From contig CAVPIY010000008.1 in assembly GCA_963705125.1 (NCBI GenBank), positions 719,900 through 783,899 of the forward strand: a DNA stretch of 64,000 bases. The letters are read 5' to 3'. The notes under the pieces were generated by a model. It did no database searches. It saw only the letters and a list, made by a program, of their open reading frames with translations, and had not been told where the DNA came from. Position 1 is the stretch's first letter; the number at the start of each line of letters is the position of its first letter. Positions 421 to 19,376 of the stretch are shown here, piece after piece. Origin of the DNA: an uncultured Bacteroidales bacterium (GTDB lineage: Bacteria; Bacteroidota; Bacteroidia; Bacteroidales; UBA10428). The translations under genes were made by a program, and so were the position numbers.

Positions 421-552
421 TATAACCTTATCGTGTCCGGGATTTGTTATTGTAAAGGAAATTTTCATTATATGTGAAAACAATTCTTTAATTTTATTGT
501 TAGCCAAATAACAATAAGACCAGAATCAGAAATAGGAACAAACCTGCAAGTT

Positions 553-1392: not shown

Positions 1393-1399
1393 TTTTAGC

Positions 1400-1921
1400 A
1401 TGAAAGAAACTTACGTTATACTGGTTGATGAAAATGATAATCCTATTGGATTGATGGAGAAGATGGAGGCTCATAGGAAAGCTATGCTGCATCGTGCCAT
1501 ATCGGTATTCATTATCAATTTAAAGGGAGAGTGGATCTTGCAGAAAAGAGCTCTGGATAAGTACCATTCCAAAGGATTATGGACAAATACTTGTTGTACC
1601 CATCCTTTGCCGGATGAATCGGAAATCGAAACAGCTAATCGCCGGTTAGCAGAAGAGATGGGTTTGAATTGTAACCTCAGGAAATTGTTTAGTTTCATTT
1701 ATAAAGAAAAGCTTGATAATGAGCTTACTGAGCATGAATTAGATCATGTCTTTATTGGGGTTACAGATAATGAGCCGGTAATTAATACTGCTGAGGTTGT
1801 TGACTGGAAAAAGTTGTCTTTCGAAGAACTGCACATCGATATTAAAGCCAATCCTGGCAACTATACCTATTGGTTCAAGCAGATTTATCAGAATGTTAAC
1901 GCTCACATTCTTAATGAATAG
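1400..1921 (+). CDS. idi: isopentenyl-diphosphate delta-isomerase, type 1 (Nudix)
   Basis: 173 aa. LHRAISVFI...WTNTCCTHP...E..A..RRL.EEMG matches the type-1 IDI signature. It starts 8 nt after crtB. Confidence 0.85.
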   Translation: MKETYVILVDENDNPIGLMEKMEAHRKAMLHRAISVFIINLKGEWILQKRALDKYHSKGLWTNTCCTHPLPDESEIETANRRLAEEMGLNCNLRKLFSFIYKEKLDNELTEHELDHVFIGVTDNEPVINTAEVVDWKKLSFEELHIDIKANPGNYTYWFKQIYQNVNAHILNE

Positions 1922-1923
1922 TT

Positions 1924-2625
1924 ATGCCGCTCTATTCTGTTATTTTGCTTTTTTCTATTTTCATTCCATTCATTCTGAGTTTCGACAGGAAAGTCAGCTT
2001 CTACAGAATTTGGAAAAGTATTATACCTTCTTCAATAATTGTTGGTGCAGTCTACATCATTTTCGATATCATTTTTGTAAAGAACGGAGTCTGGGGATTT
2101 AACCCGGGTTATCATTCAAAAGTCTTAATTTTTGGGTTGCCCCTGGAGGAGTGGCTCTTTTTTATCCTTATTCCATATGCTTGTGTATTCATCCATTATG
2201 TATTAGTTGCCTATTTTCCAGATCTGAGGATCAGCGATAGTCATGTGAGAATCTTGTCTGGATTAATTATCCTGTTTTTAGTAATAGCAGTTGTACTGAA
2301 TTTGGATAAAACTTACACCCTGTTCAATTTCAGTTTACTGATACTTGCTCTCATTTGGGCTCTCTTTGATAAAACCAAGTTAATGAACCGATACTATTTA
2401 TCATTTCTGATGATTTTAATACCTTTCTTCATTGTAAACAGTATATTAACCGGTACATTCATTGACGGCGAAGTTGTTTGGTACAATAATGCAGAGACAC
2501 TCGGAATAAGGATTGGAACAGTCCCTGTTGAGGATGTGGGTTATGCCTTCAGCCTGGTACTTCTGAATTTATTATTGATAAACTGGTTTCAGGGATTTTA
2601 TAAGCACTATAAGGTAAAAAACTGA
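1924..2625 (+). CDS. lycopene cyclase domain protein (fused CrtYc/CrtYd-type)
   Basis: 233-aa polytopic membrane ORF with two repeated halves and PLEEWLFF / PVEDVGY-type motifs typical of heterodimeric-type lycopene cyclases. It starts 3 nt after idi. Confidence 0.65.
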   Translation: MPLYSVILLFSIFIPFILSFDRKVSFYRIWKSIIPSSIIVGAVYIIFDIIFVKNGVWGFNPGYHSKVLIFGLPLEEWLFFILIPYACVFIHYVLVAYFPDLRISDSHVRILSGLIILFLVIAVVLNLDKTYTLFNFSLLILALIWALFDKTKLMNRYYLSFLMILIPFFIVNSILTGTFIDGEVVWYNNAETLGIRIGTVPVEDVGYAFSLVLLNLLLINWFQGFYKHYKVKN

Positions 2626-2626
2626 T

Positions 2627-3304
2627 ATGTTATTGGTTTTTAATGATATTAGAAATTATTTTACAAACAACAAGCGCTTTGTTGAAACCTTCTTTATTAT
2701 TTTTTACGCTATTGGTTTTATAGGAATTGCGCTCCCGTTTTCACATCTCCTGTTTGTAAAACTGGTTCCGGTAGCCCTTCTGATCAGCCTCATCGCCATA
2801 TTGCTTTTCCATCAATATGCATTTGACACGAGGACTGTCCTGGTTCTCGCAACAATTGGTTTATCTGGTTATATTATTGAGGTTGTCGGGGTTAATACCC
2901 ACCTTGTGTTTGGCCAATACCAATATGGCCGCGCCCTGGGTATAAAAATAGCTAACACCCCGGTTTTAATCGGCCTCAATTGGTTGATGCTTACTTATGC
3001 CGGCAGTTCATTAGCAGAGCGGATGAGTCTGCCTGTATGGCTTAAAATCATTATTTCTTCACTTCTTGTTCTTATATATGATATTATACTTGAAAGGGTT
3101 GCCCCTGCTATGGATATGTGGTACTGGTATAACAATGTTGTACCTTTGCAGAATTATATCGCCTGGTTCATTATCGCACTTTTATTTCAGGTTTTAATTA
3201 AGGCATCCGGGATAAATACAAAAAATTCAATAGCCTTTATGGTAATGCTATCACAGTGTATCTTTTTTTTATCTTTAATCATCCTTTTTAATCTTACAAG
3301 ATGA
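2627..3304 (+). CDS. carotenoid biosynthesis membrane protein (CruF-like 1',2'-hydratase family candidate)
   Basis: 225-aa multi-TM ORF immediately after the cyclase. Its size, topology and position match the 'carotenoid biosynthesis protein' (DUF422/CruF) family. The assignment comes from context and recollection, not a search. Confidence 0.45.
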   Translation: MLLVFNDIRNYFTNNKRFVETFFIIFYAIGFIGIALPFSHLLFVKLVPVALLISLIAILLFHQYAFDTRTVLVLATIGLSGYIIEVVGVNTHLVFGQYQYGRALGIKIANTPVLIGLNWLMLTYAGSSLAERMSLPVWLKIIISSLLVLIYDIILERVAPAMDMWYWYNNVVPLQNYIAWFIIALLFQVLIKASGINTKNSIAFMVMLSQCIFFLSLIILFNLTR

Positions 3305-3927
3305 TAATTAAGGCCAGACATCATCCGATAGTTCATTCATTCTTTAAACTATATGTTCCTTATATAATCAGAAGGAATTTCCATAAGGTGAATATTTCAG
3401 GAAATTACCAGGAGAAAAACAAACCTCTTTTAATTATTGCAAATCATATAAGCTGGTGGGACGGTTTCTGGACATTGCATCTGATCCTTAATTTATTCCA
3501 TCGTAAATTTCACTTCATGATGCAGGAAGATCAGCTCAGGAAGATCAGTATTTTTAGCCTTACCGGTGGTTTTTCAATTAAGAAGGGATCAAGATCCATT
3601 TTGGAATCAATAAAATATACCATTGAACTTCTGTCGGATAATAGAAATCTTGTTCTTTTATTCCCCCAAGGTAAAATTACTTCTTTATACAGTCAGTCAT
3701 TCTATTTTGAGAAGGGCCTGGAACGCATTATTAAAGAGGTTAACGGTAGGGTTCAGTTTTTTTTTCAGGCTAACCTGATTGATTATTTTTCGCATAAGAA
3801 ACCTTCACTCTTTATCTACCTGAAGGAATTCGAAAAGTCAAACCTTGACATTGTCAGCATTCAGGATGAATATAGCGCATTTTATGCTGCATGTGTTGCA
3901 GAAAACATTAAAAAAGCGGAGGCCTGA
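3301..3927 (+). CDS. lysophospholipid/PlsC-type acyltransferase
   Basis: 208 aa. The HX4D acyltransferase box is present as NHISWWDG, and the FPQGK motif is present. There is a 4-nt start/stop overlap with the upstream gene. Confidence 0.6.
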   Translation: MIIKARHHPIVHSFFKLYVPYIIRRNFHKVNISGNYQEKNKPLLIIANHISWWDGFWTLHLILNLFHRKFHFMMQEDQLRKISIFSLTGGFSIKKGSRSILESIKYTIELLSDNRNLVLLFPQGKITSLYSQSFYFEKGLERIIKEVNGRVQFFFQANLIDYFSHKKPSLFIYLKEFEKSNLDIVSIQDEYSAFYAACVAENIKKAEA

Positions 3928-5024
3928 TGCTGTATCTCGCCTGGTTTATTTTTTTCTTTACAATGCTGAAATTGCTTATAGCCTTCGTGAACCTGCTTTT
4001 TATATCAAAACTTTTACCAGGAAACAGGAATGAGAAACCCCTGGTTTCCATTTTGATCCCTGCCAGAAATGAAGAAAAAAACATTGGTAATGTTTTAAAC
4101 GATATCCTGCACCAGGATTATTCCAACATTGAAGTGATTGTTTTTAATGACTTATCAACCGACTCAACAGCTGAAATTGTTCAGGAATATACGCGGCGCG
4201 ACAACAGAATCAGCAAGATAAACGCCGAACAGTTGCCTGAAGGATGGCTTGGTAAAAACTGGGCCTGCCATACATTATCCAGGCATGCCAAGGGGGAGTA
4301 TTTTTTGTTTCTGGATGCGGATGTAAGAGTGGGTAATGAATTGATATATAATGCGATATCTTATTTGGTCCGCTTCGATCTGGCACTGGTTTCAATTTTT
4401 CCAAGGCAGATCATCAAAACAATTGGGGAAAAGGTTACTGTCCCGGTTATGAACTACATTCTGCTCTCTCTGTTGCCGCTTGTGCTTGTGAGAAAATCAA
4501 CTTTTCCTTCATTAGCCGCAGCCAACGGACAGTTTATGCTATTTAATGCCATAGTATATAAATTATTGGATCCGCATGAAAAAATGAAAAACAACCTGGT
4601 TGAAGATATTGAAATTGCGCGTTATCTGAAAAGGGAGAAATTTAAAATTGCCTGCCTTACAGGTGACAAAACTATTCAGTGCAGGATGTATTCCGGATTA
4701 AACGAGGCTATCCGGGGTTTCTCAAAGAATGTTTCCGCATTTTTCGGCAATTCAATAATGCTTTCATTCCTCTTTTGGTTCATAACCACATTCGGTTTTC
4801 TATTTGTTTTTTTTGCATTGCCGATGCCGTTATTTATAACTTACTTATTATCCTATATTTCAATAAGGATAATCATATCTTTCGTCAGCGAACAAAATAC
4901 GGTTGAAAATCTGTTATTGATATTTCCACAGCAGATTTCGCTGGGTTTATTCATCTTTTTCGCATTCATCAATAAAAAAAACAAAACCTATCATTGGAAA
5001 GGACGAGATATAAAATCCTTGTAA
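3927..5024 (+). CDS. family 2 glycosyltransferase (membrane-anchored)
   Basis: 365 aa. VSILIPARNEE...DADV matches GT2 signatures (DxD-like LDAD). TM segments lie at the N and C termini. There is a 1-nt overlap with the acyltransferase stop. Confidence 0.75.
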   Translation: MLYLAWFIFFFTMLKLLIAFVNLLFISKLLPGNRNEKPLVSILIPARNEEKNIGNVLNDILHQDYSNIEVIVFNDLSTDSTAEIVQEYTRRDNRISKINAEQLPEGWLGKNWACHTLSRHAKGEYFLFLDADVRVGNELIYNAISYLVRFDLALVSIFPRQIIKTIGEKVTVPVMNYILLSLLPLVLVRKSTFPSLAAANGQFMLFNAIVYKLLDPHEKMKNNLVEDIEIARYLKREKFKIACLTGDKTIQCRMYSGLNEAIRGFSKNVSAFFGNSIMLSFLFWFITTFGFLFVFFALPMPLFITYLLSYISIRIIISFVSEQNTVENLLLIFPQQISLGLFIFFAFINKKNKTYHWKGRDIKSL

Positions 5025-5731
5025 TCTTTCTGATATCCCTGGGTGCGAACGCCAGGGCCAGCTATAAATCGGAGATATACACTGCCTATGTGTATAATCA
5101 TATGGCAAACTGGAAAAGAATCATTGACAGAATGGAGGGGCTAAAAAACAAGGGGCCCGATCTTATGATTGAGTTAGTGAACTACCAGTATGGTTATATA
5201 GCCTGGTGCATAGGTAACAAGAAAATCGATGAAGCGAAGTACTACCTTGAACTGGCTGAAAAAAATATTTCAATTCTCTCTAAAGACATCAATAACCTTT
5301 CTATGGTTAATTCATACAAGGCAGCATTTTATGGCTACAGAATAGGATTAAACAATTTATTGGCTCCGTTTTTAGGGATTAAAAGTATTGATTGTGCTAA
5401 ACTTGCAATAAAAATTGATCAGGAAAATCCCTTAGGGTATGTTCAATATGCAAATATTCAATTTTATATGCCCTCGGTATTTGGCGGATCAAAAGAAGAA
5501 GCCTTGACATATTATCTCAAAGCGATGGAACTCATGGAGAAAAATGTAAGTGATATTAAAGAAAACTGGAATTATCTTAGTCTTCTTACAGTAATTGCTC
5601 AGTCTTATTCCTATCTGAATGACTTTAAATCTTCTATATTTTATCTTGAGAAGATATTGAAGCTTGAACCTGAATTTAGTTATGTGAAAAACGAATTGTA
5701 CCCAAAGGTACTGAATAAAATGAAATTGTAA
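4994..5731 (+). CDS. hypothetical helical-repeat (TPR-like) protein; start uncertain (TTG)
   Basis: 245-aa ORF with a signal-like N terminus and repeated Y/A-rich helical segments. No ATG occurs near the 5' end. It is embedded in the carotenoid operon. Confidence 0.4.
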   Translation: MERTRYKILVIFLISLGANARASYKSEIYTAYVYNHMANWKRIIDRMEGLKNKGPDLMIELVNYQYGYIAWCIGNKKIDEAKYYLELAEKNISILSKDINNLSMVNSYKAAFYGYRIGLNNLLAPFLGIKSIDCAKLAIKIDQENPLGYVQYANIQFYMPSVFGGSKEEALTYYLKAMELMEKNVSDIKENWNYLSLLTVIAQSYSYLNDFKSSIFYLEKILKLEPEFSYVKNELYPKVLNKMKL

Positions 5732-5734
5732 AAT

Positions 5735-7210
5735 ATGGCAAAAAGTGCATTAATTGTCGGAGCCGGACTGGGAGGACTTGCAACAGCTTTGCGGCTTGCA
5801 AAAAAAGGTTATAAAGTTGAGATAATTGAGAAAAACAATCAGGCAGGAGGCCGGGTAAACCAGCTTAAGAAAGATGGATTCACATTTGACACCGGGCCCA
5901 GTTTTTTCAGCATGTCATATGAATTTACGCAGTTTGCCAAAGATTGCAATATTGAATTACCCTTTAAATACATTAGTCTCGATCCTTTATATACTGTTAA
6001 CTTCAGAGGAAATCCCAAGACCTATTTTTTATATAAGGATATTCATAAACTGGCTACCCAGTTCAGTGATGTGGAGCCTGATTTTGAAGAGAAAATGACC
6101 AGATATCTTGAAAAAAGCAAACGGCTTTTTCATGATACTGTAGATGTCGCAATTAAAAACAACTATGACTCTCTTTTTGATTATTTCGTAAAACTCCTTC
6201 GTGTAAATCCTGTACATCTGCCTGTGCTTTTCCGCAATTTCTGGCAGCAGGTCTCAAAATATTTCAAGTCGGACGATGCAATACAGATTTTATCACTTGT
6301 CGCATTTTTCCTCGGGAAGACTCCTTTTGATACGTCGGCTGTATATACTTTACTCTCCTATACTGAGTTCATGCACGATGGCTACTTCAACGTTGAAGGA
6401 GGTATGTATAAAATTATTGAGGGTATTGTAAATGAGCTTGAAAAAGAGAATGTTAAAATTACCTATAATACAGAAATAGTTGATTTTGTCTCTGATAATG
6501 ATAAGCTTACAGCCCTGATTGATATGAATGAAAGGAGATGGACTGCAGATATAATTTTAGTAAATGCCGATGCTGCAGTATTCAGAGGTTCTGTTTTCAA
6601 ACGAAAGGAATTCTCTGAGAAAAAGCTTGATAAAAAGTCATGGACCATGGGTCCCCTGACAGTTTATCTGGGACTTAAATGTAAACTGCCGATGGTTCAT
6701 CATCACAACTATTATCTGGGAGATAATTTCAGCGAATATGCCGATAAAGTATTTAAGAGTCCCGACTCATTGGAAAAACCCTATTATTATGTAAATGTGC
6801 TTTCGAAGCATAATCCCGGTTGTGCTCCGCATGATTGTGAAAGTTTGTTCATAGTTTGTCCGGTTCCTGATCTCAGGTTTAAACCTGACTGGAGCGACAA
6901 GGATCAAATAGTTGACAGTATTATAGAAGATTTTTCAGGAAGGATTGGAAAAGATATAAAGCCTGAGATTGTTTCTAGAACTGTTTATACCCCCGAAGAC
7001 TGGCAGAATCAGTATAATCTGCATCGTGGGAGTGGACTGGGACTTTCGCACGATATGTTGCAAATCGGAGGATTTCGCCCAAAAAATTATGATGAAGTAT
7101 TTAAAAATGTATTTTACGTCGGGGCCTCAACCATACCGGGTACCGGATTGCCTATGGTGATGATCAGTTCAAAACTGGTTTGTGAAAGAGTCGAAAAACA
7201 TTCAAGATAA
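5735..7210 (+). CDS. crtI: phytoene desaturase family FAD oxidoreductase
   Basis: 491 aa. N-terminal dinucleotide fold (VGAGLGGLATALRLAKKGYKVEIIEKNNQAGGR) and C-terminal YVGASTIPGTGLPMV are typical of CrtI. Confidence 0.85.
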   Translation: MAKSALIVGAGLGGLATALRLAKKGYKVEIIEKNNQAGGRVNQLKKDGFTFDTGPSFFSMSYEFTQFAKDCNIELPFKYISLDPLYTVNFRGNPKTYFLYKDIHKLATQFSDVEPDFEEKMTRYLEKSKRLFHDTVDVAIKNNYDSLFDYFVKLLRVNPVHLPVLFRNFWQQVSKYFKSDDAIQILSLVAFFLGKTPFDTSAVYTLLSYTEFMHDGYFNVEGGMYKIIEGIVNELEKENVKITYNTEIVDFVSDNDKLTALIDMNERRWTADIILVNADAAVFRGSVFKRKEFSEKKLDKKSWTMGPLTVYLGLKCKLPMVHHHNYYLGDNFSEYADKVFKSPDSLEKPYYYVNVLSKHNPGCAPHDCESLFIVCPVPDLRFKPDWSDKDQIVDSIIEDFSGRIGKDIKPEIVSRTVYTPEDWQNQYNLHRGSGLGLSHDMLQIGGFRPKNYDEVFKNVFYVGASTIPGTGLPMVMISSKLVCERVEKHSR

Positions 7211-7441
7211 TCAGGACAACGGGACTATTAGGCCTGTACAGTGCCAGAAACAAAATCCGCTCATGTTCTCTCCGGGGGGACTGAATTCAAACCAGTTATT
7301 TCTTGATCTACTGAAAATCAATAGATTAAAGCGGCTTTTGTAATTTATATACCGAACTTACTTTTGCCACATTTCTAGGAAATACGTAATCTCTGTAAAT
7401 TTGATATGATAAATCTGACTAATTAATTAGGGGTCGATACA

Positions 7442-9859
7442 CTATTCAAATTTCAATGTCTTAACAGGATTCATCATAGATATCCTATAAGCCCTAAACC
7501 CACTAATTGCAAGTGCAACAAAAAGGGTAATTAATCCGGAGAGAACATATATCTCCCATTGCGTACCAATATGGCTCGAATAGTTGTTTAACCAACGTGT
7601 TGTTGCAAAGTAGCTAACAGGCCATGCGATGAGGTTTGACAATATCAAAAGTATGAAGAACTCATTTGACATTAATCTAATAACACTACCTGTGGAAGCA
7701 CCCAGTACACGCCTGATACCTATCTCTTTGGTTCGTTGCTCGGCAAGGAATGAAGTTAAGCCAATAAGACCCAGACTGGCTATAATGATTGCCAAAACGC
7801 TAAGCATTACAGTAAATTTTCCAAATTTCTCCTCGTCGTTATATTGGCTGCCAATCTGTTGTTCAAAAATATTATACTCGAATGGACGGCTTGGTGCAAA
7901 CTTGTTCCATTTACTTTCTATAAACTTTAATGCTTCACTATATTGATTTGAATTTATCCTGACTGCAATTACTCTTGCAAAAGCTTGCGGCCGCCGGAAC
8001 ATATCAATAATGAAGTTGTTCAGAGGAGTACGCAACGACATAGCATTGAAATCCTTAACTACTCCAATAACCCTTTCATCACCATCCTGCGATTTGACCT
8101 TTCTGCCAATAGCATTTTCTAAAGTCCAACCCATGTTTTTCACCATTGTTTCGTTTATAACAACTGCATGTAAAGTATCACTTGGAAAATCCCTTGAGAA
8201 CGCCCTGCCTGAAATAACTTTAAAATCAAAAGTTTGAATAAAATCCCAATCCACCAAAAATGCAGGTACATAATAATCTTCATCTGGGTTTAATCCTTCA
8301 ATCTGATATGCCCGGGTATTATGATTTACACCGAGTACATCTTCCATACCGGTAACAGATACTATATCACTATTCTCTTTTAATTCCTGCTTAAAAGCCT
8401 CATAATTTCTGAATAGCTGCCCGGTTGTTTCGAATGTGATAATTTGATCCTTCTTAAACCCTATATTGGCGTTTCGCATAAAATTGAGCTGGGCGAAAAC
8501 AACAAAAGCAGCTATAATTAAACCTATTGAGATTGTAAATTGGAATACTACAAGAGATCTTCGCGCAGTTGCACTTTTTGAGCCATTTTTGAGTAGTCCT
8601 TTCAGGATATTTAATGGTTTAAAGGACGATAGGATTATTGCAGGGTATATTCCGGCAAGTATACCCACCACAAAAGAAAGCAGTAGTGCAAAAGAAAGCA
8701 GTCTGGGCTGAAGCAAGAACGAGGTAAGTATCTGTTTGCCTGTGAAGTTGTTAAGGCCTGGTAGAAAAAGCGCCAGAAGGACAAAAGCGATTATCATTGC
8801 AAAAACACTCTGAATAATCGCTTCGCCCAGGAATTGAATGGCCAGCCCCCTGCGATCGCCGCCGAATACTTTTTTAATCCCAATTTCTTTGGCCCTCCCC
8901 GCAGAACTTGCAGTAGCTAAATTCATGAAATTGATGCATGCAAGGATTAATACAATGCCGGCAATAATAGACAGTATGTAAACATACATAATATCGCTGT
9001 TCTGATGCATTTCGTACATATGATGCGATTTCAGATGTATATCGGTTAAACTCTGCAGATAGTGCCTGACATCCTGGTTTTTAATTTCGGTATAGTAGGT
9101 TTTATAAAAATCAGGAAATTTTTGATCGAGCATCTCTGGTTTTATGCCTGGTTTAAGCAAAACATAAGTCCAAAAAGGATTACCAATCCATCCCGGGTTA
9201 AATTGACTTCGTCCACCACTAAATTGAATAAATGTTGACATGGGAGCCAGCATATCGATTCTGAAATGCGATTGAGGGGGGATATCCTTAATAACACCCG
9301 TTATCTCAAAATCTGTAAACTCCTCTATTCGTAATGTTTTTCCGATTGGTGAATCGTTGCCAAAATATCTTTTTGCAGTTGATTCTGTTAATACAATAGT
9401 GCCTGGCCTCGCAAGTGCTGTTTTGGGATCACCTTGCACGAAAGGGAAGGTAAAAATCTCAAATACGGTTGAATCAACAAAGTAAAAATTGACTTCATTA
9501 AACTTTACAACCTCATTCTTGGCATTTGTATAATCAAAGAACCACTTAGGTCTTTGTCCATTGAAAAACATCACAGTTTTTTCAACCAGTTCAGGGTAGG
9601 CTGTTTCCAGGGTTGAGGCCAGTGGGAATGGACAGGTTGCGGCGTCCTCATTGGCATTATTGGCATTATAAAACCGGTTAACCCTGTAAATTCTGTTGGC
9701 CTTGTCGTTAAACTTGTCATAGCTCAGCTCATCTGATATGTAAAGGACAATAAACATGAAACTTGCTAAACCAATAGCCAGTCCTGTAATGTTTATTAAT
9801 GAATAGTTCCAGTACTTCAGAATATTCCTTAGGGCTATGGTAAAGATATGGTGTATCAT
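7442..9859 (-). CDS. ABC transporter permease, FtsX/MacB-like (double FtsX domain, ~800 aa)
   Basis: 805 aa. It has an N-terminal TM segment plus a MacB-type periplasmic domain, and two FtsX blocks (EIGIKKVFGG..., EIGIRRVLGAS...). It is a paralog of 42371..44797. Confidence 0.85.
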   Translation of the reverse strand: MIHHIFTIALRNILKYWNYSLINITGLAIGLASFMFIVLYISDELSYDKFNDKANRIYRVNRFYNANNANEDAATCPFPLASTLETAYPELVEKTVMFFNGQRPKWFFDYTNAKNEVVKFNEVNFYFVDSTVFEIFTFPFVQGDPKTALARPGTIVLTESTAKRYFGNDSPIGKTLRIEEFTDFEITGVIKDIPPQSHFRIDMLAPMSTFIQFSGGRSQFNPGWIGNPFWTYVLLKPGIKPEMLDQKFPDFYKTYYTEIKNQDVRHYLQSLTDIHLKSHHMYEMHQNSDIMYVYILSIIAGIVLILACINFMNLATASSAGRAKEIGIKKVFGGDRRGLAIQFLGEAIIQSVFAMIIAFVLLALFLPGLNNFTGKQILTSFLLQPRLLSFALLLSFVVGILAGIYPAIILSSFKPLNILKGLLKNGSKSATARRSLVVFQFTISIGLIIAAFVVFAQLNFMRNANIGFKKDQIITFETTGQLFRNYEAFKQELKENSDIVSVTGMEDVLGVNHNTRAYQIEGLNPDEDYYVPAFLVDWDFIQTFDFKVISGRAFSRDFPSDTLHAVVINETMVKNMGWTLENAIGRKVKSQDGDERVIGVVKDFNAMSLRTPLNNFIIDMFRRPQAFARVIAVRINSNQYSEALKFIESKWNKFAPSRPFEYNIFEQQIGSQYNDEEKFGKFTVMLSVLAIIIASLGLIGLTSFLAEQRTKEIGIRRVLGASTGSVIRLMSNEFFILLILSNLIAWPVSYFATTRWLNNYSSHIGTQWEIYVLSGLITLFVALAISGFRAYRISMMNPVKTLKFE

Positions 9860-9983
9860 TCCCAGTCAATTATATTTATAATTCCGCCTCATAAATCAGG
9901 AATATAAATATAATCGGTTAAATCAAAATTTACAAATATTTGGCTCATCAACAATCCTTACCTGGAATAAATGGTATTAAACC

Positions 9984-10222
9984 CCAGAGCAAACTCTGGA
10001 CACATTGTTCCGGGGCAAGCCCCGGGGAATTAAACCAAAACTTCTCGTCCGCCGAAGCGGAACGCGAAGGCGGATTAAAAAAGTTCACCAGGGCTTATGC
10101 GGAAAAGCCAGAGACCTTTACCATATTTGGCCGGAATAACTTGACCATCCATCGCCGGAGTTAAATTCTTTTTATTTAGCTGTGTATGTTAAATGTAATC
10201 TGACCGGCCAAATGTGGTCAAG
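9984..10222 (-). other. hairpin-rich GC island in a divergent intergenic region; candidate structured RNA or 5' leader
   Basis: On the minus strand there are consecutive stable hairpins with tetraloops: UCCGC-UUCG-GCGGA (10048-10061), CCGGGG-CUUG-CCCCGG (10010-10025) and CCAGAG-UUUG-CUCUGG (9984-9999). A 19-bp inverted repeat (10116-10134 / 10204-10222) matches at 17/19 positions. Confidence 0.3.
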
Positions 10223-11552: not shown

Positions 11553-14500
11553 ATGAATAAAATTATTATCGTTATCACAATTGCAGCAACCTTGTTTGCA
11601 GGCAGCTGTTCGCCACATAAGGGCGAACCGGCATTTTCGGAATTGAAGAAAGGGTTTATGAATCCTCCTGATTCTGCTCGTCCAGGTGTTTATTGGTTTA
11701 TTATGGATGGCAATATATCGAAACAGGGAATAACTGCTGATTTGGAGTCGATGAAAGCCGCGGGCATTGGAAGTGTATTGTTTATGGAGGTTAATGTGGG
11801 TGTTCCCCGGGGGAAAGTTGATTTCATGAGTGAAGAATGGATGAATTTGTTTACCCATACTGTGCGCGAGGCCGAGCGCATAGGTATCGCCATAACCCTT
11901 GGGGTTGGTCCAGGGTGGACCGGCAGCGGTGGTCCATGGGTTACAGGTGCCCAGTCAATGAAACATCTTGTTTATAGTTTAACTCAGGTTTCAGAAAATG
12001 AAAAGAAGCCAATCATCCTTCCGAGGCCGGCTCCTATGAATCCCTATTTTGGTGAGGACGTTTTCACTCCGGAACTCAGGCAAAAATGGCTCGAATATTA
12101 TGAAGATGTTTGTGTGCTTGCATTTCCTACTCCGGTTGGCGAATTCCGAATGACTGATATTACCAGAAAAGCCTTGTATTATCGCGATCCATTCACTTCA
12201 ATGCCTGGTGTAAAACCATTTCTTCCATCGTATGCAGTTTATAGTGAACCTGCTAAAGGAGCTGTAATTTCAACGGATAAAATTATTGATGTAACCCGGT
12301 ACCTGAAACCGGATGGCGCCCTGGATTGGAAAGTTCCCAGGGGTAATTGGACCATTATGCGTTTCGGAAGCAGAAATAACGGCGCTGTTACCCGCCCTGC
12401 TCCAATACCGGGTTTGGGTTTTGAAGCCGACAAATTCGATACCACAGCCATTGATGCACATATGGCAAGTTTCACCGGCAAGTTGCTTCAAAAAACAGGT
12501 ACGTCTGACAACAGAATGCAGGGAGGCTTAAAGATGCTCCACATGGATAGCTGGGAGATGGGTGCACAAAACTGGAGTTCCCGGTTCAGGGAGGAGTTTC
12601 AAAAGCGAAGAGGCTATGATCCGCTTCCTTATTATCCTGTTTATTCGGGACTGGTGGTTGAAAGCCTGGAGAAAAGCGAACGTTTTCTGTGGGATTTGCG
12701 GCTGACCGCTCAGGAATTAGTTATTGAAAATCATGCTGTCCATCTCAAAAAATACGCACAAAAATACAACATGGGATTTTCCATCGAGCCTTACGACATG
12801 ACCCCTGTTGCCGATATGGAACTGGGTGCAGTGGCTGATGTTCCAATGTGTGAATTCTGGAGTAAAGATTATGGATTCAATGCGTCTTTCAGTTGTATTG
12901 AGGTGGCATCTATTGCCCATATCGAAGGAAAGAAGGTTGTTGCTGCCGAGGCTTTCACAGCCTATCTCGATGCCTGGACGCAATATCCCGGATCAATGAA
13001 AGATCAGGGCGACTGGGCTTTTGCAACCGGAGTTAATAAATTCGTGTATGTTATTTTTCAGCATCAGCCACTCAATGACAGCCTGAAACCGGGGATGACT
13101 TTTGGGCCCTATGGTGTGCATCATGAACGCAATCAGACCTGGTGGCCAATGGTGGACGGATACCATAAATATGTTTCCCGTTGTCAGTACCTTCTGCAAC
13201 AGGGACAAACGGTAGCTGACATTCTGTATCTAACACCTGAAGGTGCACCCCAGGTATTCCGTGCACCGGTTTCTGCTCTGACAAAAGGAATGGTACCGGA
13301 CAAATCGTTGGTTTTAACAGCCAAAGAGGATATGCTGCCGGGTGAGTCAAAAGATGCGTTTCTTCCTGACCGGAAAGGCTATAACTTTGATGGCTGTGCG
13401 CATTCCCAGTTATTGAAAGCATCAGTCACTAACGGGAAAATCGTATTCCCGTCAGGGGCTTCCTATTCCGTCCTTGTTCTGCCGAATACTGAAACAATGA
13501 CTCCGGTATTACTCAATAAAATTGAATCATTGGTGAACGACGGCGCTGTAATTATAGGAAATCCTCCGCTTAAATCGCCCAGCCTGGTGAACTACCCCGA
13601 ATGTGACAGGCAGGTTGCATCGAAATCCGGATCCATGTGGGGTGCAACAACCGCACCTTCACAAATTTCCGAACGAAGGTTGGGAAAGGGTAAAATTTAT
13701 TGGGGCGGTGCTTTCTCCGGTATTAAATTGCCAGAGCTATACCCGGACTATGATTCCACGGCTTCAATACTCCGCGAAATGGGTATTCCTGAAGATTTTG
13801 AATCAGATGGTTCTGTAAGATATACGCATCAATTGATCCCTTCCGGAGAAATTTATTTTGTTTCAAATAAAACCAATGCTGCCATACATGTCAATTGTTC
13901 ATTCCGGGTTAGCGAAGGAACACCCGAATTGTGGAATCCTATGACCGGAGAAACGCGGGAACTTCCTGACTTTGAAATAAAGAAAGGTCAGATACAAATA
14001 CCACTTCATTTTGAGGCTTACGAAAGCTTATTTTATTGTTTTCAATCGAAATAGTAAAGTAAAACCAGCCAGCTCTTCAGGCATGAAAAATTTTGCCCAA
14101 CCGGAAGTTTTATTTGAAGTGGACAATCAATGGAAGGTATCCTTCGACCCGAAATGGGGTGGACCTGAAAATGTTGTTTTCGATAAACTTGTTGACTGGA
14201 CTTCAAGACCGGAAGAAGGCATTAAATACTATTCAGGAATTGCAAATTATCACAATACAATAAAATTTCCTGAAAATATTATTGCTGATAAAAAGACTGA
14301 TGTATATATTGATCTGGGAGAAGTGAACAACCTGGCCCGTATTCATGTAAATAGCAAAGATATGGGTGTAGTATGGACTGCTCCTTTCCGCATAAAAATT
14401 ACAGATGCAGTTATTCCGGGTGAAAACAAGATTGATATAGAAGTGGCCAACCTCTGGCCCAACCGGCTTGATTGGTGATGAACAAGAAGCCGGACGACGG

Positions 14501-14657
14501 GATTAAAGACAATCAATGGCCTGATTGGCTGCTAAACGGAAAACCAAGGACCTCAGGGAGGTATACATTTACTACCTACAAACACTACAACGCCGATTCT
14601 CCTTTATTGAAATCGGGATTAATGGGTCCGGTTAAAATACTGATTGTCAAAAAATAA
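11553..14657 (+). pseudogene. large glycoside hydrolase (Bacteroidota 'GH2 sugar-binding / GH106-like' family) interrupted by frameshifts
   Basis: Three consecutive ORFs (11553..14054, 14011..14478, 14472..14657) read as one protein. The first junction lies in the T run 14031-14034 (ESLF|IVFNRN). Around 14467-14489, frame A gives NLWPNR, frame B gives LIGDEQ and frame C gives PDDGIKDNQWPDWL...GRYTFTTYKHY. Confidence 0.7.
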
Positions 14658-14668: not shown

Positions 14669-14703
14669 GTAAACAGACACCTCCTATGGAGGTGTCTGTT
14701 TAC
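14669..14703. terminator. perfect 16-bp stem / 3-nt loop hairpin downstream of the hydrolase
   Basis: The sequence gtaaacagacacctcc-tat-ggaggtgtctgtttac starts 12 nt after the last stop codon (14657). No clear U tract follows, so function as an intrinsic terminator is inferred from position only. Confidence 0.5.
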
Positions 14704-15288
14704 TAAGCAGGTAAACTTCACAAAGTCCGGTGGAAATATCCAGCCGGTGTCCGATCATTTCAGCATTCCGGCGGGCGAAGTCCAGCAGTACCGGGCTTTT
14801 CCTTGTTATTTTCTGCAATGCGGATGTCCCAGAAATTGTTGTGCCCAAAATAGAGCACAACTGCATCGGGACGGGTAGTGTTTTTTACATTCATAGATTA
14901 ATGGTGTTTTTATTTTTCTAAAATATGTTTTATAAGCATTTTAAAGTCGTGTTTTTAACTCCAACCTAATAAAGGGATTAAGTGGCAGAAGAAAAATTGA
15001 TACAACATTATTGCAGTATCCAGGTTTGATATTTTATGGTGCAAATGAAAAAGCCACTCAGTTGAAAAGCGTTTGAATGGTTTGATTTTTCTAGTGACCC
15101 CGTCGGGACCGTATTCGAACCATTTATGGTTGACTTGCAGAAATTCAATAAATTACGGTCATTTCACTAATGATTTAACCGAATGGAGCTACAAACCCTT
15201 TAGGCACGATGATGATTATTCGTTCCGGGGCAAGTTTCTCACTATGGATCCCTTTCCCAAATTTTCCCGGTAATTGGGAATAAATTGC

Positions 15289-15296
15289 TAATTTTG
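15289..15296 (+). promoter_or_regulatory. Bacteroidota -7 promoter box (TAnnTTTG)
   Basis: TAATTTTG lies 43 nt upstream of the ATG at 15339. This is a motif match only. Confidence 0.35.
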
Positions 15297-15338
15297 TTGT
15301 GAAATTGACAATGAAGGAAAAATTAATTGCTTAAGACT

Positions 15339-15593
15339 ATGCAAACCATACTGGTGGAACTCAGGGATGAAAAGGCTTTTGAGGAACTTCATAACTTAGA
15401 AGAAAAGCAATTAATCCGTATTATTAGTGAAAATGAAGTCACATCCTCGTATAGTCTGCCCGGAGATCCTATGACCGTGGAAGAATTTAGAAAATGGATA
15501 TATCTTTCAGAACATACCCCTACTGTTAGCCTAACGCAAGCAAAACAACAATGGCAAAACCGAAAGAAAAAACTCCAACAACTTATCAAGTAA
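15339..15593 (+). CDS. small protein upstream of ParE; putative antitoxin
   Basis: 84 aa from the ATG at 15339 (the ORF track begins at the TTG at 15327). It overlaps the toxin ORF by 43 nt. Small genes of this kind are a recurrent partner of RelE/ParE genes. No DNA-binding motif was recognised by eye. Confidence 0.5.
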   Translation: MQTILVELRDEKAFEELHNLEEKQLIRIISENEVTSSYSLPGDPMTVEEFRKWIYLSEHTPTVSLTQAKQQWQNRKKKLQQLIK

Positions 15594-15901
15594 GGGTTAC
15601 CGAAAACGCGCAGCAGGACATTGATTACATTACGGGTTACATTGCCTTTATCAATCATCAGCCATTTTATGCCATCCGTGTGGGCGATGCCCTATTTGAA
15701 ACCATCGACCGCATAGGGAAAAACCCTTTAGCTTTTCGTGAGTGTGAAGAGATTCTGACAGCAGGTAAAATATATCGCAAAGCGGTTTGCCAGAGCTGGC
15801 TTATTATCTACAAAATAAAACCCGCAGAAGTGATTATCCTGGGTGTTATTCACAGTGCACGCAAACCCTCACGGATTAATAAGCTGAGAAAAATCAGTTG
15901 A
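15551..15901 (+). CDS. parE: type II toxin, RelE/ParE superfamily
   Basis: 116 aa. The pattern ...A..DIDYI..YI......A.......ETI..I..NP........E......YRK.V..SWLIIYKI....V.ILGVIHSAR fits the ParE/RelE fold. Confidence 0.7.
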   Translation: MAKPKEKTPTTYQVRVTENAQQDIDYITGYIAFINHQPFYAIRVGDALFETIDRIGKNPLAFRECEEILTAGKIYRKAVCQSWLIIYKIKPAEVIILGVIHSARKPSRINKLRKIS

Positions 15902-15991
15902 TCTTGCTGTAAAGTAAAATACGATTTTGAATCACGTTTGGTATCTGGCTGCTGCTTTCAAAGTTTAAGGCATTGTTGTTTCAACGGACAA

Positions 15992-18892
15992 ATGGAGAAT
16001 CTTCAAACAAAAATATCCTTGTTCAGATCCCTTTTCAAAGGGCGCGAAGATGTTTTCGCTATCCGGTGGGAGAAAGACAAAAAGAGCGGCTATATGCCTG
16101 CCTACTTTTTCGATCCTTACCGTTTCCGCGCCCACAAAATGAAAGGAGGTACTTTTCAGAACTATCCTGATAAATCCTATCTCCAACTGACCAATGACCA
16201 AATTGCCAAACATCTGAATGGAGAGCAGGTCGTTGGTTTGTACCCACTTCTTTCGGATAATACCTCATGGTTTATTGCTGCCGATTTTGATGAGGGTGAT
16301 TGGATTGCATCCTGTAAAAAGTTTATTCAGGCTTGCAATGATGTTTCCTTACCTGCTTATTTTGAACGTTCACGTTCCGGAAAGGGTGGGCATATTTGGA
16401 TATTTTTTGACAAGCCATTTTCTGCTTTTAAAAGCAGAAAAGTAATCTTATCATTGTTAACATCATCGGGTATTGTATCAGCATTTGATAAGAATACAAG
16501 CTTTGACAGGTTGTTCCCAAATCAAGACAATCTTTCAGGAAAAGGATTGGGAAACCTCATTGCTCTGCCATTAAATGGTACTTCATTGCAACAATGCAAC
16601 AGTTGCTTTATCAACCCGATAACTTTACATCCTTATTCTGACCAATGGCAGTTTCTTCAGCAGATAGAACGGGTTTCAACGGAGCATTTTGAAGGATTGT
16701 TTTCCAAGCTATCGAATACTCCACATCAGGTAAACAATATAGGCATACTAAACATTACACTGAGGAATAACATTGTACTGAACAGAAATGCCATTGATCC
16801 GACATTATTCCATTTCATTAATGAGGAACTGAATTTTCTGAACACAGAATTTATCATCAAAAAGAATAGCCGCAGGAATACTTTTGGCACTGACCGGTAT
16901 TTCCGGTTCATTGAAGAACTGGGTAATAATATCCTTTTGCCTAAAGGGTTCATTGGAAAGCTAATCCGTTTTTGCCGGGATAATTCGATAGCACATAGTT
17001 TTATAGACCAGCGAAAATTGAATAGCCCGGTTACCTATTCGTTTCAGGCAAATCTGCGTTCTTATCAACAGGAAAGCATGGAAGCCATCAATAAAAAAGA
17101 TATCGGAGTTATAGTGGCGCCACCGGGTTCCGGGAAAACTGTAATGGCATTGAAAATTGTGGCCGAAAAACAGCAGCCAGCATTGATCGTTGTTCACAGG
17201 AAACAACTTGCCATGCAATGGATGGAACGGATTGAAGCTTTTTTAGGTATTGTACAAAAGGATATTGGGCACATCGGACAGGGAAAAACAAAGATCGGAA
17301 AGCAGATCACCGTAGCCACGATACAAAGCCTTGCCAAAGTTGATTTACAAAATCTCACGGATATGTTCGGGCTTATCATTGTTGATGAATGCCATCACAT
17401 TCCTGCTGCAACATTTCGCAATACAATCGGTAAATTCAATTCACGATTTCTTTATGGATTAACAGCAACTCCCTTCAGAAAATACGATGATGGCAGGCTC
17501 ATCTTTATACATCTTGGCGAGATAATTGCAGAAATTCGGACGAATGAGCTCTCCACTTCAAATCACCCAGAAATTATCATCCGGAATACCCAACTGGATG
17601 TTCCCTTTAATGGAAAAACTGACCGGTTTGAAACTTTATCAAAAATACTGGTACATGATTCAGAGAGGAACAAGCTTATATTGCGTGATGTGGTCATTGA
17701 ATTGAATAAAGGAAAGAAGGTTGTTATCTTAACAGAAAGGAAAGAGCATATTGATACTTTACAACAATTCCTCAAACAATCGTTTGAAACAATAACTCTC
17801 AGTGGTGAAGATTCCGAAAGCAATAGGAATATAAAATGGAAGTTATTGAGGGAGGGTATCTACCAAGCATTGATCACTACTGGCCAGTTCTTTGGGGAAG
17901 GGTCCGATCTACAAAACACTCAATGCCTGTTTTTGGTTTATCCTTTTTCTTTTAAGGGCAAGTTGATCCAATATATGGGCAGGGTGCAACGATCGGAAAT
18001 CAGCCCAACTATATATGATTACAGGGATATTAAGATAGATTACCTGAACCGTATGTTTCTTAAAAGGAATGTTTCTTACCGAAAACTGGAAAAGCAAAGA
18101 ACACTTTTTGATCTGCCAGACGAAGAAAACATCGATCAATCAAAGCCCTTAGATGAAGAATTAATCCTGGAAAGAACCATTAAGGTTAAAATAGAAGATT
18201 TGGAATTTCTCTATGGCGGTTTTCAGTTCCGGTATAGTATTCCGGAATATTCAGATGAATTGATCTTCGATATTGAAAACCTGAATATCCGTCCTGAATT
18301 TGAAGTGCTGAAACCTTATTTTGAAAATTTCTTTAAGTCGAAAACAGTAACAGTCTTCATAACTGCCATTATGAATAAACAGAAAGCTGTCACTGCTTTA
18401 TCTGCAAGCTCCTCAGATCTTGAAAAGCTGAACAGGGAAATTGTAGAAGGTGTACGCTTCCGTTTTGTGGAAAGGAACTTTTTTGGCAAGGGTTTTCCAA
18501 TAGAACAAAAAGGTTTAAATAGAGATCTAAGTACCGGAACCGGAAGCAGCATCTATGAATCGGCAGAAGAAATACTCTCAGATGTTTTGAGCAGAGACAA
18601 CTACAAGCACCAAAAGCAATTACATTATTTGTCGGAACGGCATGAAGGCAGTGTATTAAAGATCCGGTTTGTTTTATGCCCTTTTGCCTTCGTTTTCTTA
18701 CTTACAGGTATCGAGCAATATCACATTGTTATGGAAACCTTGGATACCGAGGAAGCCACATACATATGGCACTTGTCCAAAAATATTAATTCACTAAAAC
18801 AAGGCATTCTGGAAATAGACAAACAGCTAAATAAAATCGCAATGAAGGCAGGAATGTTTCTGGAAACAAATCAGTCAATTTTAGCAGAATAA
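15992..18892 (+). CDS. archaeo-eukaryotic primase (PrimPol-like) domain fused to an SF2 DEAD/DEAH-type helicase and an uncharacterised C-terminal domain
   Basis: 966 aa from ATG 15992. AEP motifs are IAADFDEG (DxD), SRSGKGGHIWIFF (sGxGxH) and FDRLFPNQD. Helicase motifs are APPGSGKT (I), IIVDECHH (II), GLTATP (III) and QYMGRVQR (VI). The last ~250 aa have no motif I recognise. Confidence 0.8.
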   Translation: MENLQTKISLFRSLFKGREDVFAIRWEKDKKSGYMPAYFFDPYRFRAHKMKGGTFQNYPDKSYLQLTNDQIAKHLNGEQVVGLYPLLSDNTSWFIAADFDEGDWIASCKKFIQACNDVSLPAYFERSRSGKGGHIWIFFDKPFSAFKSRKVILSLLTSSGIVSAFDKNTSFDRLFPNQDNLSGKGLGNLIALPLNGTSLQQCNSCFINPITLHPYSDQWQFLQQIERVSTEHFEGLFSKLSNTPHQVNNIGILNITLRNNIVLNRNAIDPTLFHFINEELNFLNTEFIIKKNSRRNTFGTDRYFRFIEELGNNILLPKGFIGKLIRFCRDNSIAHSFIDQRKLNSPVTYSFQANLRSYQQESMEAINKKDIGVIVAPPGSGKTVMALKIVAEKQQPALIVVHRKQLAMQWMERIEAFLGIVQKDIGHIGQGKTKIGKQITVATIQSLAKVDLQNLTDMFGLIIVDECHHIPAATFRNTIGKFNSRFLYGLTATPFRKYDDGRLIFIHLGEIIAEIRTNELSTSNHPEIIIRNTQLDVPFNGKTDRFETLSKILVHDSERNKLILRDVVIELNKGKKVVILTERKEHIDTLQQFLKQSFETITLSGEDSESNRNIKWKLLREGIYQALITTGQFFGEGSDLQNTQCLFLVYPFSFKGKLIQYMGRVQRSEISPTIYDYRDIKIDYLNRMFLKRNVSYRKLEKQRTLFDLPDEENIDQSKPLDEELILERTIKVKIEDLEFLYGGFQFRYSIPEYSDELIFDIENLNIRPEFEVLKPYFENFFKSKTVTVFITAIMNKQKAVTALSASSSDLEKLNREIVEGVRFRFVERNFFGKGFPIEQKGLNRDLSTGTGSSIYESAEEILSDVLSRDNYKHQKQLHYLSERHEGSVLKIRFVLCPFAFVFLLTGIEQYHIVMETLDTEEATYIWHLSKNINSLKQGILEIDKQLNKIAMKAGMFLETNQSILAE

Positions 18893-19090
18893 TACATGAT
18901 TATTCCAATGAACGTAAGGGGTTTGTTTTATGGAAAGATGCACTGGAGGAAAGGCTTGTTTAGAATGAAACCTGGTAGTACTAGAAGCAAATATCAATGT
19001 ATATAATGGATTGAAAATTAAACAGATTTTGGCTCTTATCGAAAAAAATAGTTCAAAATCAATGACTTTGAAGGCTATTTAAAATAATCG

Positions 19091-19108
19091 GTGACCCAGG
19101 AGGGATTC
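19091..19108 (-). repeat. partial duplicate of the tRNA-Arg 3' end (att-like direct repeat)
   Basis: gtgacccaggagggattc matches gtgaccccggagggattc (19268-19285, the 3' end of the tRNA gene) at 17/18 positions, in the same orientation. Confidence 0.6.
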
Positions 19109-19152
19109 TCGCTGCCGCTCGATGATCCGCAGGAAGAGGGTCTACAAGATAA

Positions 19153-19196
19153 ATGCTGCCGGCAGCATAGCTGCCTTACATTTTTTTTTGTTTTTT
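19153..19196 (+). terminator. GC hairpin(s) followed by T9-G-T6
   Basis: The arms gctgcc/ggcagc/gctgcc allow two hairpins (atgctgccggcagcat or ggcagc-ata-gctgcc). They are followed by ttaca and a long T run. This is the only terminator-like signal after the helicase gene. Confidence 0.4.
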
Positions 19197-19268
19197 CTGC
19201 AATTGAAAGCGAAGCTTTCTCTGGCCTCCAAAACAAAAAAAGCCGCTAATGGCGGGCACTTTATTTTG

Positions 19269-19342
19269 TGACCCCGGAGGGATTCAAACCCCCGACTTTC
19301 AGAACCGGAATCTGACGTTCTATTCAGCTGAACTACGGGGCC
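19269..19342 (-). tRNA. tRNA-Arg (anticodon CCG)
   Basis: I folded a 74-nt cloverleaf by hand: acceptor GGCCCCG/CGGGGTC, D stem GTTC/GAAC, anticodon stem TCAGA/TCTGA with loop TTCCGGT, and T stem GGGGG/CCCTC. The discriminator is A and no CCA is encoded. Confidence 0.85.
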
Positions 19343-19346: not shown

Positions 19347-19376
19347 TGGGTGTGTGTGGGTGTGTGTGGGTGTGTG
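19347..19376. repeat. tandem decamer (TGGGTGTGTG)x3
   Basis: Three exact 10-bp units begin 5 nt from the 5' end of the tRNA-Arg gene. Confidence 0.9.

Follow-up and report, generated by a model that had tools for sequence, protein, structure and literature searches.

A tRNA-linked islet of an uncultured Bacteroidales bacterium carries a candidate conflict-system primase-helicase behind an interchangeable toxin-antitoxin pair

The stretch of DNA analysed here, referred to as the window, comprises 64,000 nucleotides from an uncultured Bacteroidales bacterium (contig CAVPIY010000008.1, positions 719,900 to 783,899). Our subject is a small islet at the gene for tRNA-Arg(CCG). It contains three genes, all on the plus strand, which encode a protein of 84 amino acids (aa), a ParE/RelE-fold toxin, and a large protein in which an archaeo-eukaryotic primase (AEP) domain, a superfamily 2 (SF2) helicase core and a C-terminal domain (CTD) are joined (Table 1). 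An earlier note, made from the letters of the window, had proposed a conflict or defence locus between a hairpin that closes a broken hydrolase gene and the tRNA gene. The hairpin, the broken hydrolase, the tRNA and the three genes are all present.

Table 1. Features of the islet and its borders, in window coordinates.
Feature	Position	Strand	Details
Perfect 17-bp hairpin	14668-14684/14688-14704		Arms 100% complementary; ends the broken GH106 gene; outside the islet proper
Left-end attachment (att)-like module (direct repeat 1)	15094-15155	+	tRNA 3'-end-like fragment 15094-15121 plus conserved arm
Candidate Bacteroidota -7 promoter element	15289-15296	+	TAATTTTG; 43 nt 5' of the antitoxin ATG
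Putative antitoxin gene, 84 aa	15339-15593	+	Pfam-less family
ParE/RelE-fold toxin gene, 116 aa	15551-15901	+	PF05016 (ParE_toxin), E = 1.1e-12, 48.8 bits against a cut-off of 23
hipA 3'-end vestige	15948-15968	+	Last 7 codons: AAAFKV plus stop, at the swap junction
AEP-SF2-CTD gene, 966 aa	15992-18892	+	AEP 16010-16693; SF2 helicase 17051-17995; CTD about 18149-18871
Out-of-frame remnant of the same gene, last 24-25 codons (approximately)	18893-18963	+	IIHDYSNERKGFVLWKDALEERLV; ancestral stop 18961-18963
3' flank of the cassette	18964-19090	+	Conserved; degraded T-arm-like fragment about 18968-18990; weakened terminator hairpin 19050-19074
Direct repeat 2	19091-19108	+	GTGACCCAGGAGGGATTC; copy of the tRNA 3' end, 17/18 match
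Remnant unit, 159 bp	19109-19267		Between repeat 2 and the tRNA; hairpins 19153-19168 and 19243-19255
tRNA-Arg(CCG) gene	19268/9-19342	-	ARAGORN; Rfam 59.3 bits; 3' end 19268-19285 = direct repeat 3

The islet proper measures about 4.2 kb (15094-19285) and lies between direct copies of the tRNA-Arg(CCG) 3' end. The left edge had been placed at position 14704 in the earlier note, which is some 390 bp too far to the left, as the unit shared with other genomes begins only at 15090-15094. Its proposal of tRNA-derived fragments at both edges holds up well: only 0.01 matches as good as that of GTGACCCAGGAGGGATTC to the tRNA end are expected in shuffled sequence, and only 0.08 as good as that of GTGACCCCGTCGGGA (15094-15108), which agrees with the tRNA end at 13 of 15 positions. 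Both copies are oriented like the tRNA end itself. An Rfam scan by E-value reported the real tRNA only, the fragments at the repeats being too short to score. Judged by these repeats, the 3' end of tRNA-Arg(CCG) is the integration target of the islet. The 159-bp unit next to the tRNA is common to one related locus (L009; related loci are given L numbers throughout) and missing in another (L036), in which the position of repeat 2 is occupied by the tRNA end itself (L036 10675-10692); in the window it thus represents an extra remnant unit. The gene-poor scar that had been described at 18893-19268 does contain a tRNA fragment, but its first 71 positions (18893-18963) represent the 3' end of the large gene, shifted out of frame. 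A 66-aa open reading frame (ORF) across the left end (15073-15273) was rejected as a coding sequence on account of frame-breaking indels among five aligned copies.

The toxin ORF starts within the 84-aa ORF, with an overlap of 43 nt, and its product also matches phrog_5232 'toxin'. The 84-aa protein, a putative antitoxin, has no match in Pfam, NCBIfam, PHROG or PADLOC, and hence none that would place it in the ParD, Phd or ribbon-helix-helix families; no PADLOC match was obtained for ParE either. The family of the 84-aa protein consists of 44 clusters of proteins of 82-84 aa, with taxon names confined to Bacteroidales and Bacteroidota, and the pair is conserved as such in L009, L036 and L089. 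The motif TAATTTTG may serve as promoter element of the antitoxin gene. It is the sole motif of this type in 15000-16100 and is kept in the alignment of left ends, but a single match is close to chance expectation (0.31 per kb). Since neither a further -7 motif nor a predicted terminator is found in the 90 bp between the ParE gene and the large gene, the antitoxin, toxin and primase-helicase genes are likely to be co-transcribed as one operon.

The start of the large gene was assigned to the ATG at 15992 by comparison with homologs. Its AEP domain matches PF22548, 'TOTE conflict system, archaeo-eukaryotic primase domain' (AEP-TOTE), over profile positions 2-228 of 230 (E = 5e-82; 275.5 bits against a cut-off of 27), and its helicase core matches ResIII (E = 2e-31), DEAD and Helicase_C (E = 7e-8). 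Among 16 homologs with 27-94% identity, the primase residues D98, D100, S127/S129/G132/H134 and D172/D179 are invariant, and the helicase residues GKT381-383, DECH465-468, T491-T493 and Q660/R664/R667 are conserved. Because the motifs of both are retained over this range, primase and helicase both look active. Matches to NCBIfam models stay below the respective cut-offs, both for the primase (NF040561 PrimPol_Msp, E = 5e-31, 108 against 200 bits) and, by a wide margin, for the helicases XPB (89 against 610 bits) and RadD (58 against 720 bits) and the plasmid replication protein CyRepA1 (E = 4e-10). In PADLOC, domain-level matches were obtained to PrimPol (PDLC01465; E = 2e-65), PbeA and a type IV restriction endonuclease. 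The architecture, regarded as unusual in the earlier note, is in fact widespread: 7,483 homolog clusters, mostly of 990-994 aa, were retrieved at E<=1e-10, and some homologs already carry the NCBI name 'TOTE conflict system archaeo-eukaryotic primase domain-containing protein'.

The CTD of about 270 aa belongs to no Pfam family, and a PDB profile search with it was empty. Foldseek searches with two AlphaFold models (pLDDT, the predicted local distance difference test score, 74 and 76), two against PDB and one against BFVD, gave best E-values of 0.04, 0.09 and 0.01, with template-modelling scores below 0.3. By eye, the topology of the second subdomain recalls a restriction-endonuclease-like core, an assignment we do not claim, as the catalytic residues are absent and Foldseek gave no support. 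The whole CTD also occurs in free-standing, Pfam-less proteins of about 400-440 aa (P0265-P0388, e.g. P0298, P0282 and P0268), some of them encoded on Mb-sized contigs. These consist of an N-terminal part of about 130 aa that belongs to no known family, followed by the CTD including its HDYS...GF.KWK tail.

The same unit is present at the same tRNA in two Bacteroidales metagenome-assembled genomes (MAGs; L009 and L036). Homology to the window sets in at 15085-15090, at the tRNA-like fragment, and the same is true for L089, an intact sister islet with 95.6% DNA identity to the window whose contig ends at the repeats. L009 and L036 are 92-95% identical to the window through the ParE pair and 100% identical in the tRNA, as compared with about 70% in the orthologous gene for an 816-aa protein beyond the tRNA; their left flanks are unrelated. 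A related cassette, described below, resides at four other tRNAs. In L009 and L036 the large gene has suffered different, independent large internal deletions, each time with the ParE pair left intact. The locus L009 (1-5464) contains three successive units at tRNA-Arg(CCG), each starting with a hairpin that is followed by the tRNA-like fragment and the conserved arm. One unit carries the ParE pair and a remnant of the helicase gene, another a HigB toxin together with a 128-aa partner, and a further one a cupin protein.

Metagenome contigs and IMG/VR were scanned with a pattern derived from the 62-nt left end (window 15094-15155). The pattern detected ten more metagenome contigs, including L079-L084, and had no match in IMG/VR. 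The motif adjoins an AbiEii cassette in L079, where a 116-aa ORF precedes AbiEii, an AbiEii fragment in L087, and genes for TIR-like and TPR proteins in L083. No integrase or recombinase is encoded by the three islet ORFs. The window ORFs that were tested did not include one either, and phmmer, run with eight recombinase and transposase queries and with limited sensitivity, likewise gave no match in the window. Within 10 kb, no integrase was present at the annotated related loci whose flanking ORFs were examined, L009 and L036 included. An N-terminal integrase fragment in L083 lies 10 kb away from the motif, with no link between the two. The tRNA-end repeats, the excess conservation relative to the flank and the occurrence of the cassette type at other tRNAs bear out the view of the earlier note that this is a tRNA-linked accessory islet without an integrase; as far as sequence comparison can tell, it is mobile, and an integrase encoded elsewhere probably mobilises it in trans.

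The closest relatives of the large gene, with 86-91% DNA identity, reside in Prolixibacteraceae and other Bacteroidota MAGs (L001-L008 and L090). Homology to these loci starts sharply at position 15946 of the window and ends at 19083-19099, so that the ParE pair lies outside. In eight places the large gene is preceded, at a distance of 24 bp, by an Xre-type helix-turn-helix (HTH) gene and a HipA_C kinase gene. This HipBA-type islet is a discrete block of about 5.0 kb which is 86-93% identical between unrelated flanks. Its 3' flank adjoins tRNA-Leu(GAG), tRNA-Leu(CAG), tRNA-Arg(TCT) or tRNA-Arg(CCT), and its left end has a homologous tRNA-like fragment with a hairpin before it. A terminator hairpin (CCTTCAAA/TTTGAAGG) is kept in eight loci. 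In six aligned HipBA-type islets (L001, L002, L004, L005, L006 and L090) a T-arm-like fragment, GGACTCGAACC, directly follows the stop codon of the primase-helicase gene; this fragment, degraded in the window, is probably the scar of an older tRNA end. In L002, a second copy of the islet HTH-gene region with 77% identity (13197-13555) is located directly after the HipBA-type islet, which suggests tandem islets there too.

ParE-type islets are found in the window, L089, L009 and L036. At the junction between the ParE pair and the large gene the window retains a vestige of the 3' end of hipA, of which L089 and L036 keep about 32 nt. The presence of this fossil indicates that an exchange of the toxin-antitoxin pair turned a HipBA version into the ParE version. 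More distant relatives have yet other genes in this slot: a broken HipA gene in Solitalea lacus (L073; 72% identity to the window protein), genes for DUF6577 and AbiEii proteins in Dyadobacter (L074; 63%), and genes for AbiEi and AbiEii, with a 1-bp gap to the large gene, in Ferruginibacter (L075-L078; 61%). Altogether, a toxin-antitoxin pair directly precedes the large gene in 15 of 17 distinct places, on the same strand and with gaps of 1-125 bp between toxin and helicase genes. Homologs from Firmicutes and Proteobacteria, which have 28-35% identity and lack the CTD, showed mixed neighbourhoods with no consistent toxin-antitoxin pair.

Copies of the gene that are not located at tRNAs have neighbours that PADLOC assigns to a type IV restriction endonuclease (E = 5e-222), AbiLi/AbiLii, a reverse transcriptase, NsnA/PD-T4-2_A and DndD/PbeC, and to which Pfam adds Mrr-nSTAND, NERD, HEPN and NADAR domains. 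Homologs in other lineages adjoin type IV restriction, AbiL, Dnd/Pbe and GmrSD-like genes. In L074, L075, L094 and L095 the gene is part of defence islands that have no tRNA or att signature. In Solitalea lacus, a large serine recombinase gene, a reverse transcriptase gene and AbiL genes are situated upstream of the homolog, and five tRNA genes (two for tRNA-Leu(TAA) and three for tRNA-Gly(GCC); L073 9540-10035) lie 558 bp downstream and convergent with it.

Proteobacterial AEP-SF2 homologs are proteins of about 800 aa without the CTD. On plasmids, their genes are cargo placed convergently to three tandem tyrosine recombinase genes, which resembles a recombinase-in-trio arrangement, and in one plasmid the gene sits between the resolvase and transposase genes of a Tn3-family element. 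For the plasmids inspected (L091, NC_009957 pDSHI03; L092, pESA134_1 of E. albertii; L093, pCB3090_3), replicon typing points to other rep genes. A fusion of AEP and SF2 domains was detected neither in 50,697 phage records nor in IMG/VR; together with the lack of the left-end motif in IMG/VR this led us to discard a phage origin.

The copy of the large gene in the window is damaged at its 3' end. The protein is collinear with homologs of 991 aa up to residue 960. Relative to L089, deletions of 1, 2 and 1 nt after positions 18838, 18854 and 18872 scramble eight codons and then shift the reading frame, which removes the tail IIHDYSNERKGFVLWKDALEERLV, a segment that even the remote free-standing CTD proteins have kept. 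The alignment with L089 covers 3.17 kb and has 16 gap positions, all of which fall within 18838-19060 and are mostly losses of C or CC; they also weaken the terminator hairpin.

We propose that the islet is a cis-mobilizable, toxin-antitoxin-stabilised candidate defence cassette whose large protein is a predicted conflict enzyme directed against phages or plasmids, and we regard this as fairly probable. According to this model, a small att-flanked integrative element without an integrase of its own has entered the 3' end of tRNA-Arg(CCG), and its conserved payload would be the AEP-SF2-CTD protein, an enzyme acting on the nucleic acids of phages or plasmids. The SF2 motor may load on foreign or aberrant DNA and translocate along it, the AEP domain may prime or extend on this invader DNA, and the CTD may supply recognition or control. 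The toxin-antitoxin pair would be an exchangeable plug-in that donates an autoregulated promoter, by which expression is both driven and gated, and that makes the islet addictive so that the cassette is retained; growth arrest by the toxin might provide a back-up.

The argument for such a role of the pair comes from its exchange. ParE poisons gyrase, HipA is a kinase of proteins, and AbiEii belongs to the nucleotidyltransferases. As these proteins have no biochemistry in common, the payload cannot depend on the action of the toxin. The features that the three modules share are generic, namely an autoregulated promoter, a labile antitoxin and addictiveness, and for this reason we read the pair as a module for expression and retention. 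Survival of the ParE pair after decay of the payload in L009 and L036 fits with this reading. The idea, put forward in the earlier note, that the three genes act as one system is therefore tenable in part: a pair does precede the large gene in nearly all places, but it is interchangeable, outlives the large gene and is absent in L095, which points to a generic rather than a biochemical link. For the proposed conflict or defence function, support comes from the PF22548 annotation and from the context of homologs.

Several points weigh against this interpretation. The defence reading is built on association and on a Pfam/NCBI name. PADLOC 2.0.0 has no system model for the family of the large protein, and the PADLOC search recommended in the earlier note matched no system-specific model with any of the three proteins; experiments on this primase-helicase family were not found in the literature searched. 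The window copy may be inactive since its conserved C-terminal tail is lost, and the indels in 18838-19060 could reflect either real decay or an assembly artefact, the neighbouring GH106 gene being frameshifted as well. The association with toxin-antitoxin pairs is less broad when counted by lineage (four of six), because 12 of the 17 places belong to one lineage of at least 86% identity. It is not universal either, the exceptions being L094 (63% identity to the window protein), with a PDDEXK_4 gene upstream, and L095 (68%), with no upstream partner. A helper integrase was not identified in the loci examined. Finally, composition is not distinctive. The islet is more AT-rich than average, as had been noted by eye (GC content 0.389, window mean 0.438, standard deviation 0.033), but a GC content as low as this occurs in 14% of windows of the same size, and that of the first 10 kb is lower still (0.36-0.39); composition thus proves little, and we rejected it as evidence for an island.

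A more far-reaching version of the proposal is possible, yet we advance it only tentatively and with appreciable doubt. It holds that AEP-SF2-CTD proteins might be the central component of a system that acts against phages or plasmids, occurs widely and works by helicase-coupled priming or polymerisation, in which interchangeable ParE, HipBA and AbiE pairs would serve as regulatory or abortive arm. Such systems would spread in Bacteroidota on a new class of integrase-less, tRNA-targeting mini-cassettes with a 62-nt end that are arrayed like the cassettes of integrons.

Among the alternatives, the one that fares best, even though we consider it unlikely, is that the AEP-helicase is the replication protein of the islet itself and that the toxin-antitoxin pair acts in plasmid-style addiction, which would make the locus a minimal integrated replicon or a satellite. 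AEP-helicase fusions such as ORF904 of pRN1 and the alpha protein of P4 are classic replicases of plasmids and satellites, toxin-antitoxin pairs are typical stabilisers of plasmids, the gene rides on mobile islets, on plasmids beside recombinase trios and on a Tn3-family element, and there is the weak match to CyRepA1. While the earlier note had seen no replication module, the primase-helicase could in principle be one. The motor, however, is of the SF2 ResIII/XPB-like type and not an SF3 or DnaB-type helicase, and the fusion is missing from the phage collections. On the plasmids examined the gene is cargo and the replicon typing points to other rep genes; islets with the same ends carry other cargo without it. 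Moreover, the copies in L074, L075, L094 and L095 are fixed in defence islands, and neither iterons nor tandem repeats were found within the islet.

It is less probable still that the locus encodes a true three-component toxin-antitoxin system in which the primase-helicase regulates or neutralises the toxin, or functions as its activator or sensor. Parallels can be drawn to PsyrTA with its RecQ-like antitoxin and to toxin-antitoxin-chaperone (TAC) systems with their chaperone. The tight, same-strand arrangement of toxin and helicase genes, with spacings of 1 bp (L075), 24 bp (HipBA type) and 90 bp (window), and the order antitoxin, toxin, helicase in 15 of 17 places are what such a system would predict. 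Yet a specific partnership between the large protein and a toxin is unlikely because three mechanistically unrelated toxins (ParE, the HipA kinase and the AbiEii nucleotidyltransferase) fill the same slot; besides, large deletions in the helicase gene have left the ParE pair unharmed (L009 and L036), and the helicase gene stands alone in L095.

We attach very little probability to a canonical TOTE conflict system with the AEP protein as effector. As cited in PMC12458937, the acronym stands for TPR, OB, TBP and Effector (Aravind, Iyer & Burroughs 2022). With these systems, as far as that citation describes them, the islet shares a full-length PF22548 member, reflected in the TOTE name that NCBI applies to homologs, and a predicted conflict role; it differs by the lack of TPR-CSD and TBP partners, by the fusion of the AEP domain to an SF2 helicase and a CTD, and by the coupling to toxin-antitoxin pairs. 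By Pfam, none of the three islet genes encodes a TPR, S1/CSD or TBP domain, the flanking genes tested (GH106, URO-D-like and beta-propeller/phosphoesterase) have no TPR match, and the CTD shows no TBP or OB match in Pfam or Foldseek. Because TPR, OB and TBP are missing in the islet and also beside the relatives examined, we conclude that this is not a canonical TOTE system. Hardly credible, finally, is a vertically inherited housekeeping gene for repair or replication that lies near a tRNA by chance: the similarity to the repair helicases XPB and RadD is far too weak for membership in such a family, and the islet is much more conserved than its flank, is bounded by direct repeats, places the gene at five different tRNAs in unrelated contexts and decays readily (L009, L036 and the tail of the window copy).

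When set beside other known systems, the preferred candidate defence cassette shows both familiar and deviating features. As in ParDE, HipBA and AbiE modules (type II/IV), a ParE_toxin gene follows a small overlapping gene, and HTH plus HipA_C or AbiEi plus AbiEii genes take the same slot in relatives; unlike in these modules, the antitoxin is Pfam-less and a gene for a primase-helicase of about 990 aa follows in the operon. Cis-mobilizable elements (CIMEs) are att-flanked elements without integration or transfer genes, for which tandem accretion at tRNA genes is described (Pavlovic 2004; Bellanger 2011; reviewed in PMC5704250). The islet resembles them in that it has retained direct repeats, resides in a tRNA 3' end, lacks integration and transfer genes and forms tandem arrays (L009). 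It differs in the size of its units (0.2-5 kb), their common 62-nt end and their toxin-antitoxin or defence cargo, and we liken it to CIMEs by ends and gene content, not by descent from a specific integrative and conjugative or integrative and mobilizable element. In these respects the units resemble integron cassettes. The AEP domain is similar to that of CRISPR-associated PrimPol (NF040561, PDLC01465), but the domain fusion is different, and in view of the NF040561 score below the cut-off and of the absence of cas genes among the ORFs tested around the locus we discarded membership in this group. With helicase defence systems and PsyrTA the islet has in common the genetic coupling of an SF2 helicase to a toxin and the location of the gene in defence islands; those systems lack AEP domain and CTD, whereas in the islet the type of toxin is interchangeable. 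A primase-helicase fusion on a small mobile element is likewise found among replicases of mobile genetic elements (ORF904 of pRN1, alpha of P4, Pri-Rep of phage-inducible chromosomal islands), from which the islet protein is set apart by its SF2 ResIII-type motor, its absence from phage collections and its status as cargo on plasmids.

The naming of the family as a component of conflict systems, done computationally, precedes this study, and ParE pairs and tRNA islets are ordinary. New, so far as the literature searched shows, are the constant place of the payload gene in the operon, downstream of toxin-antitoxin pairs that can be swapped and with a fossil left at the junction, the CTD without a known fold, and the integrase-less mini-cassettes with a common 62-nt end; reports that link AEP-helicases with HipA, AbiE or ParE were not found. 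We know of hardly any experimentally characterised defence system that contains a primase-polymerase domain. If restriction of phages or plasmids were demonstrated, priming would represent a new enzymatic principle in defence, within a family of thousands of members. One payload behind three unrelated types of toxin-antitoxin pairs, together with the fossil of a toxin gene, amounts to a natural experiment in module swapping, and it bears on the question of why such pairs cluster with immune genes, whether as a means of addiction, for regulation or as an abortive back-up. The mini-cassettes may be a vehicle by which defence genes are traded in Bacteroidota. If the protein turned out to be a replicase, the locus would represent an integrative replicon of very small size.

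A few observations concern the surroundings of the islet. The GH106 alpha-L-rhamnosidase gene (Glyco_hydro_106, E = 6e-175) is split into three overlapping ORFs (11553-14054, 14011-14478 and 14472-14657, corresponding to 833, 155 and 61 aa), which reflects either a pseudogene or indel errors. The segment of about 390 bp between the hairpin and the islet (14705-15093) is not common to L009, L036 and L089 and contains short minus-strand ORF fragments (e.g. 14684-14866) without a Pfam match. Just 5' of the tRNA-Arg gene a tandem repeat, (TGGGTGTGTG)x3, is present at 19347-19376. The first 10 kb of the window (1-10000) are its most atypical region with respect to tetranucleotide composition, and the genes located there look carotenoid-related, judging by the N-termini of their products alone.

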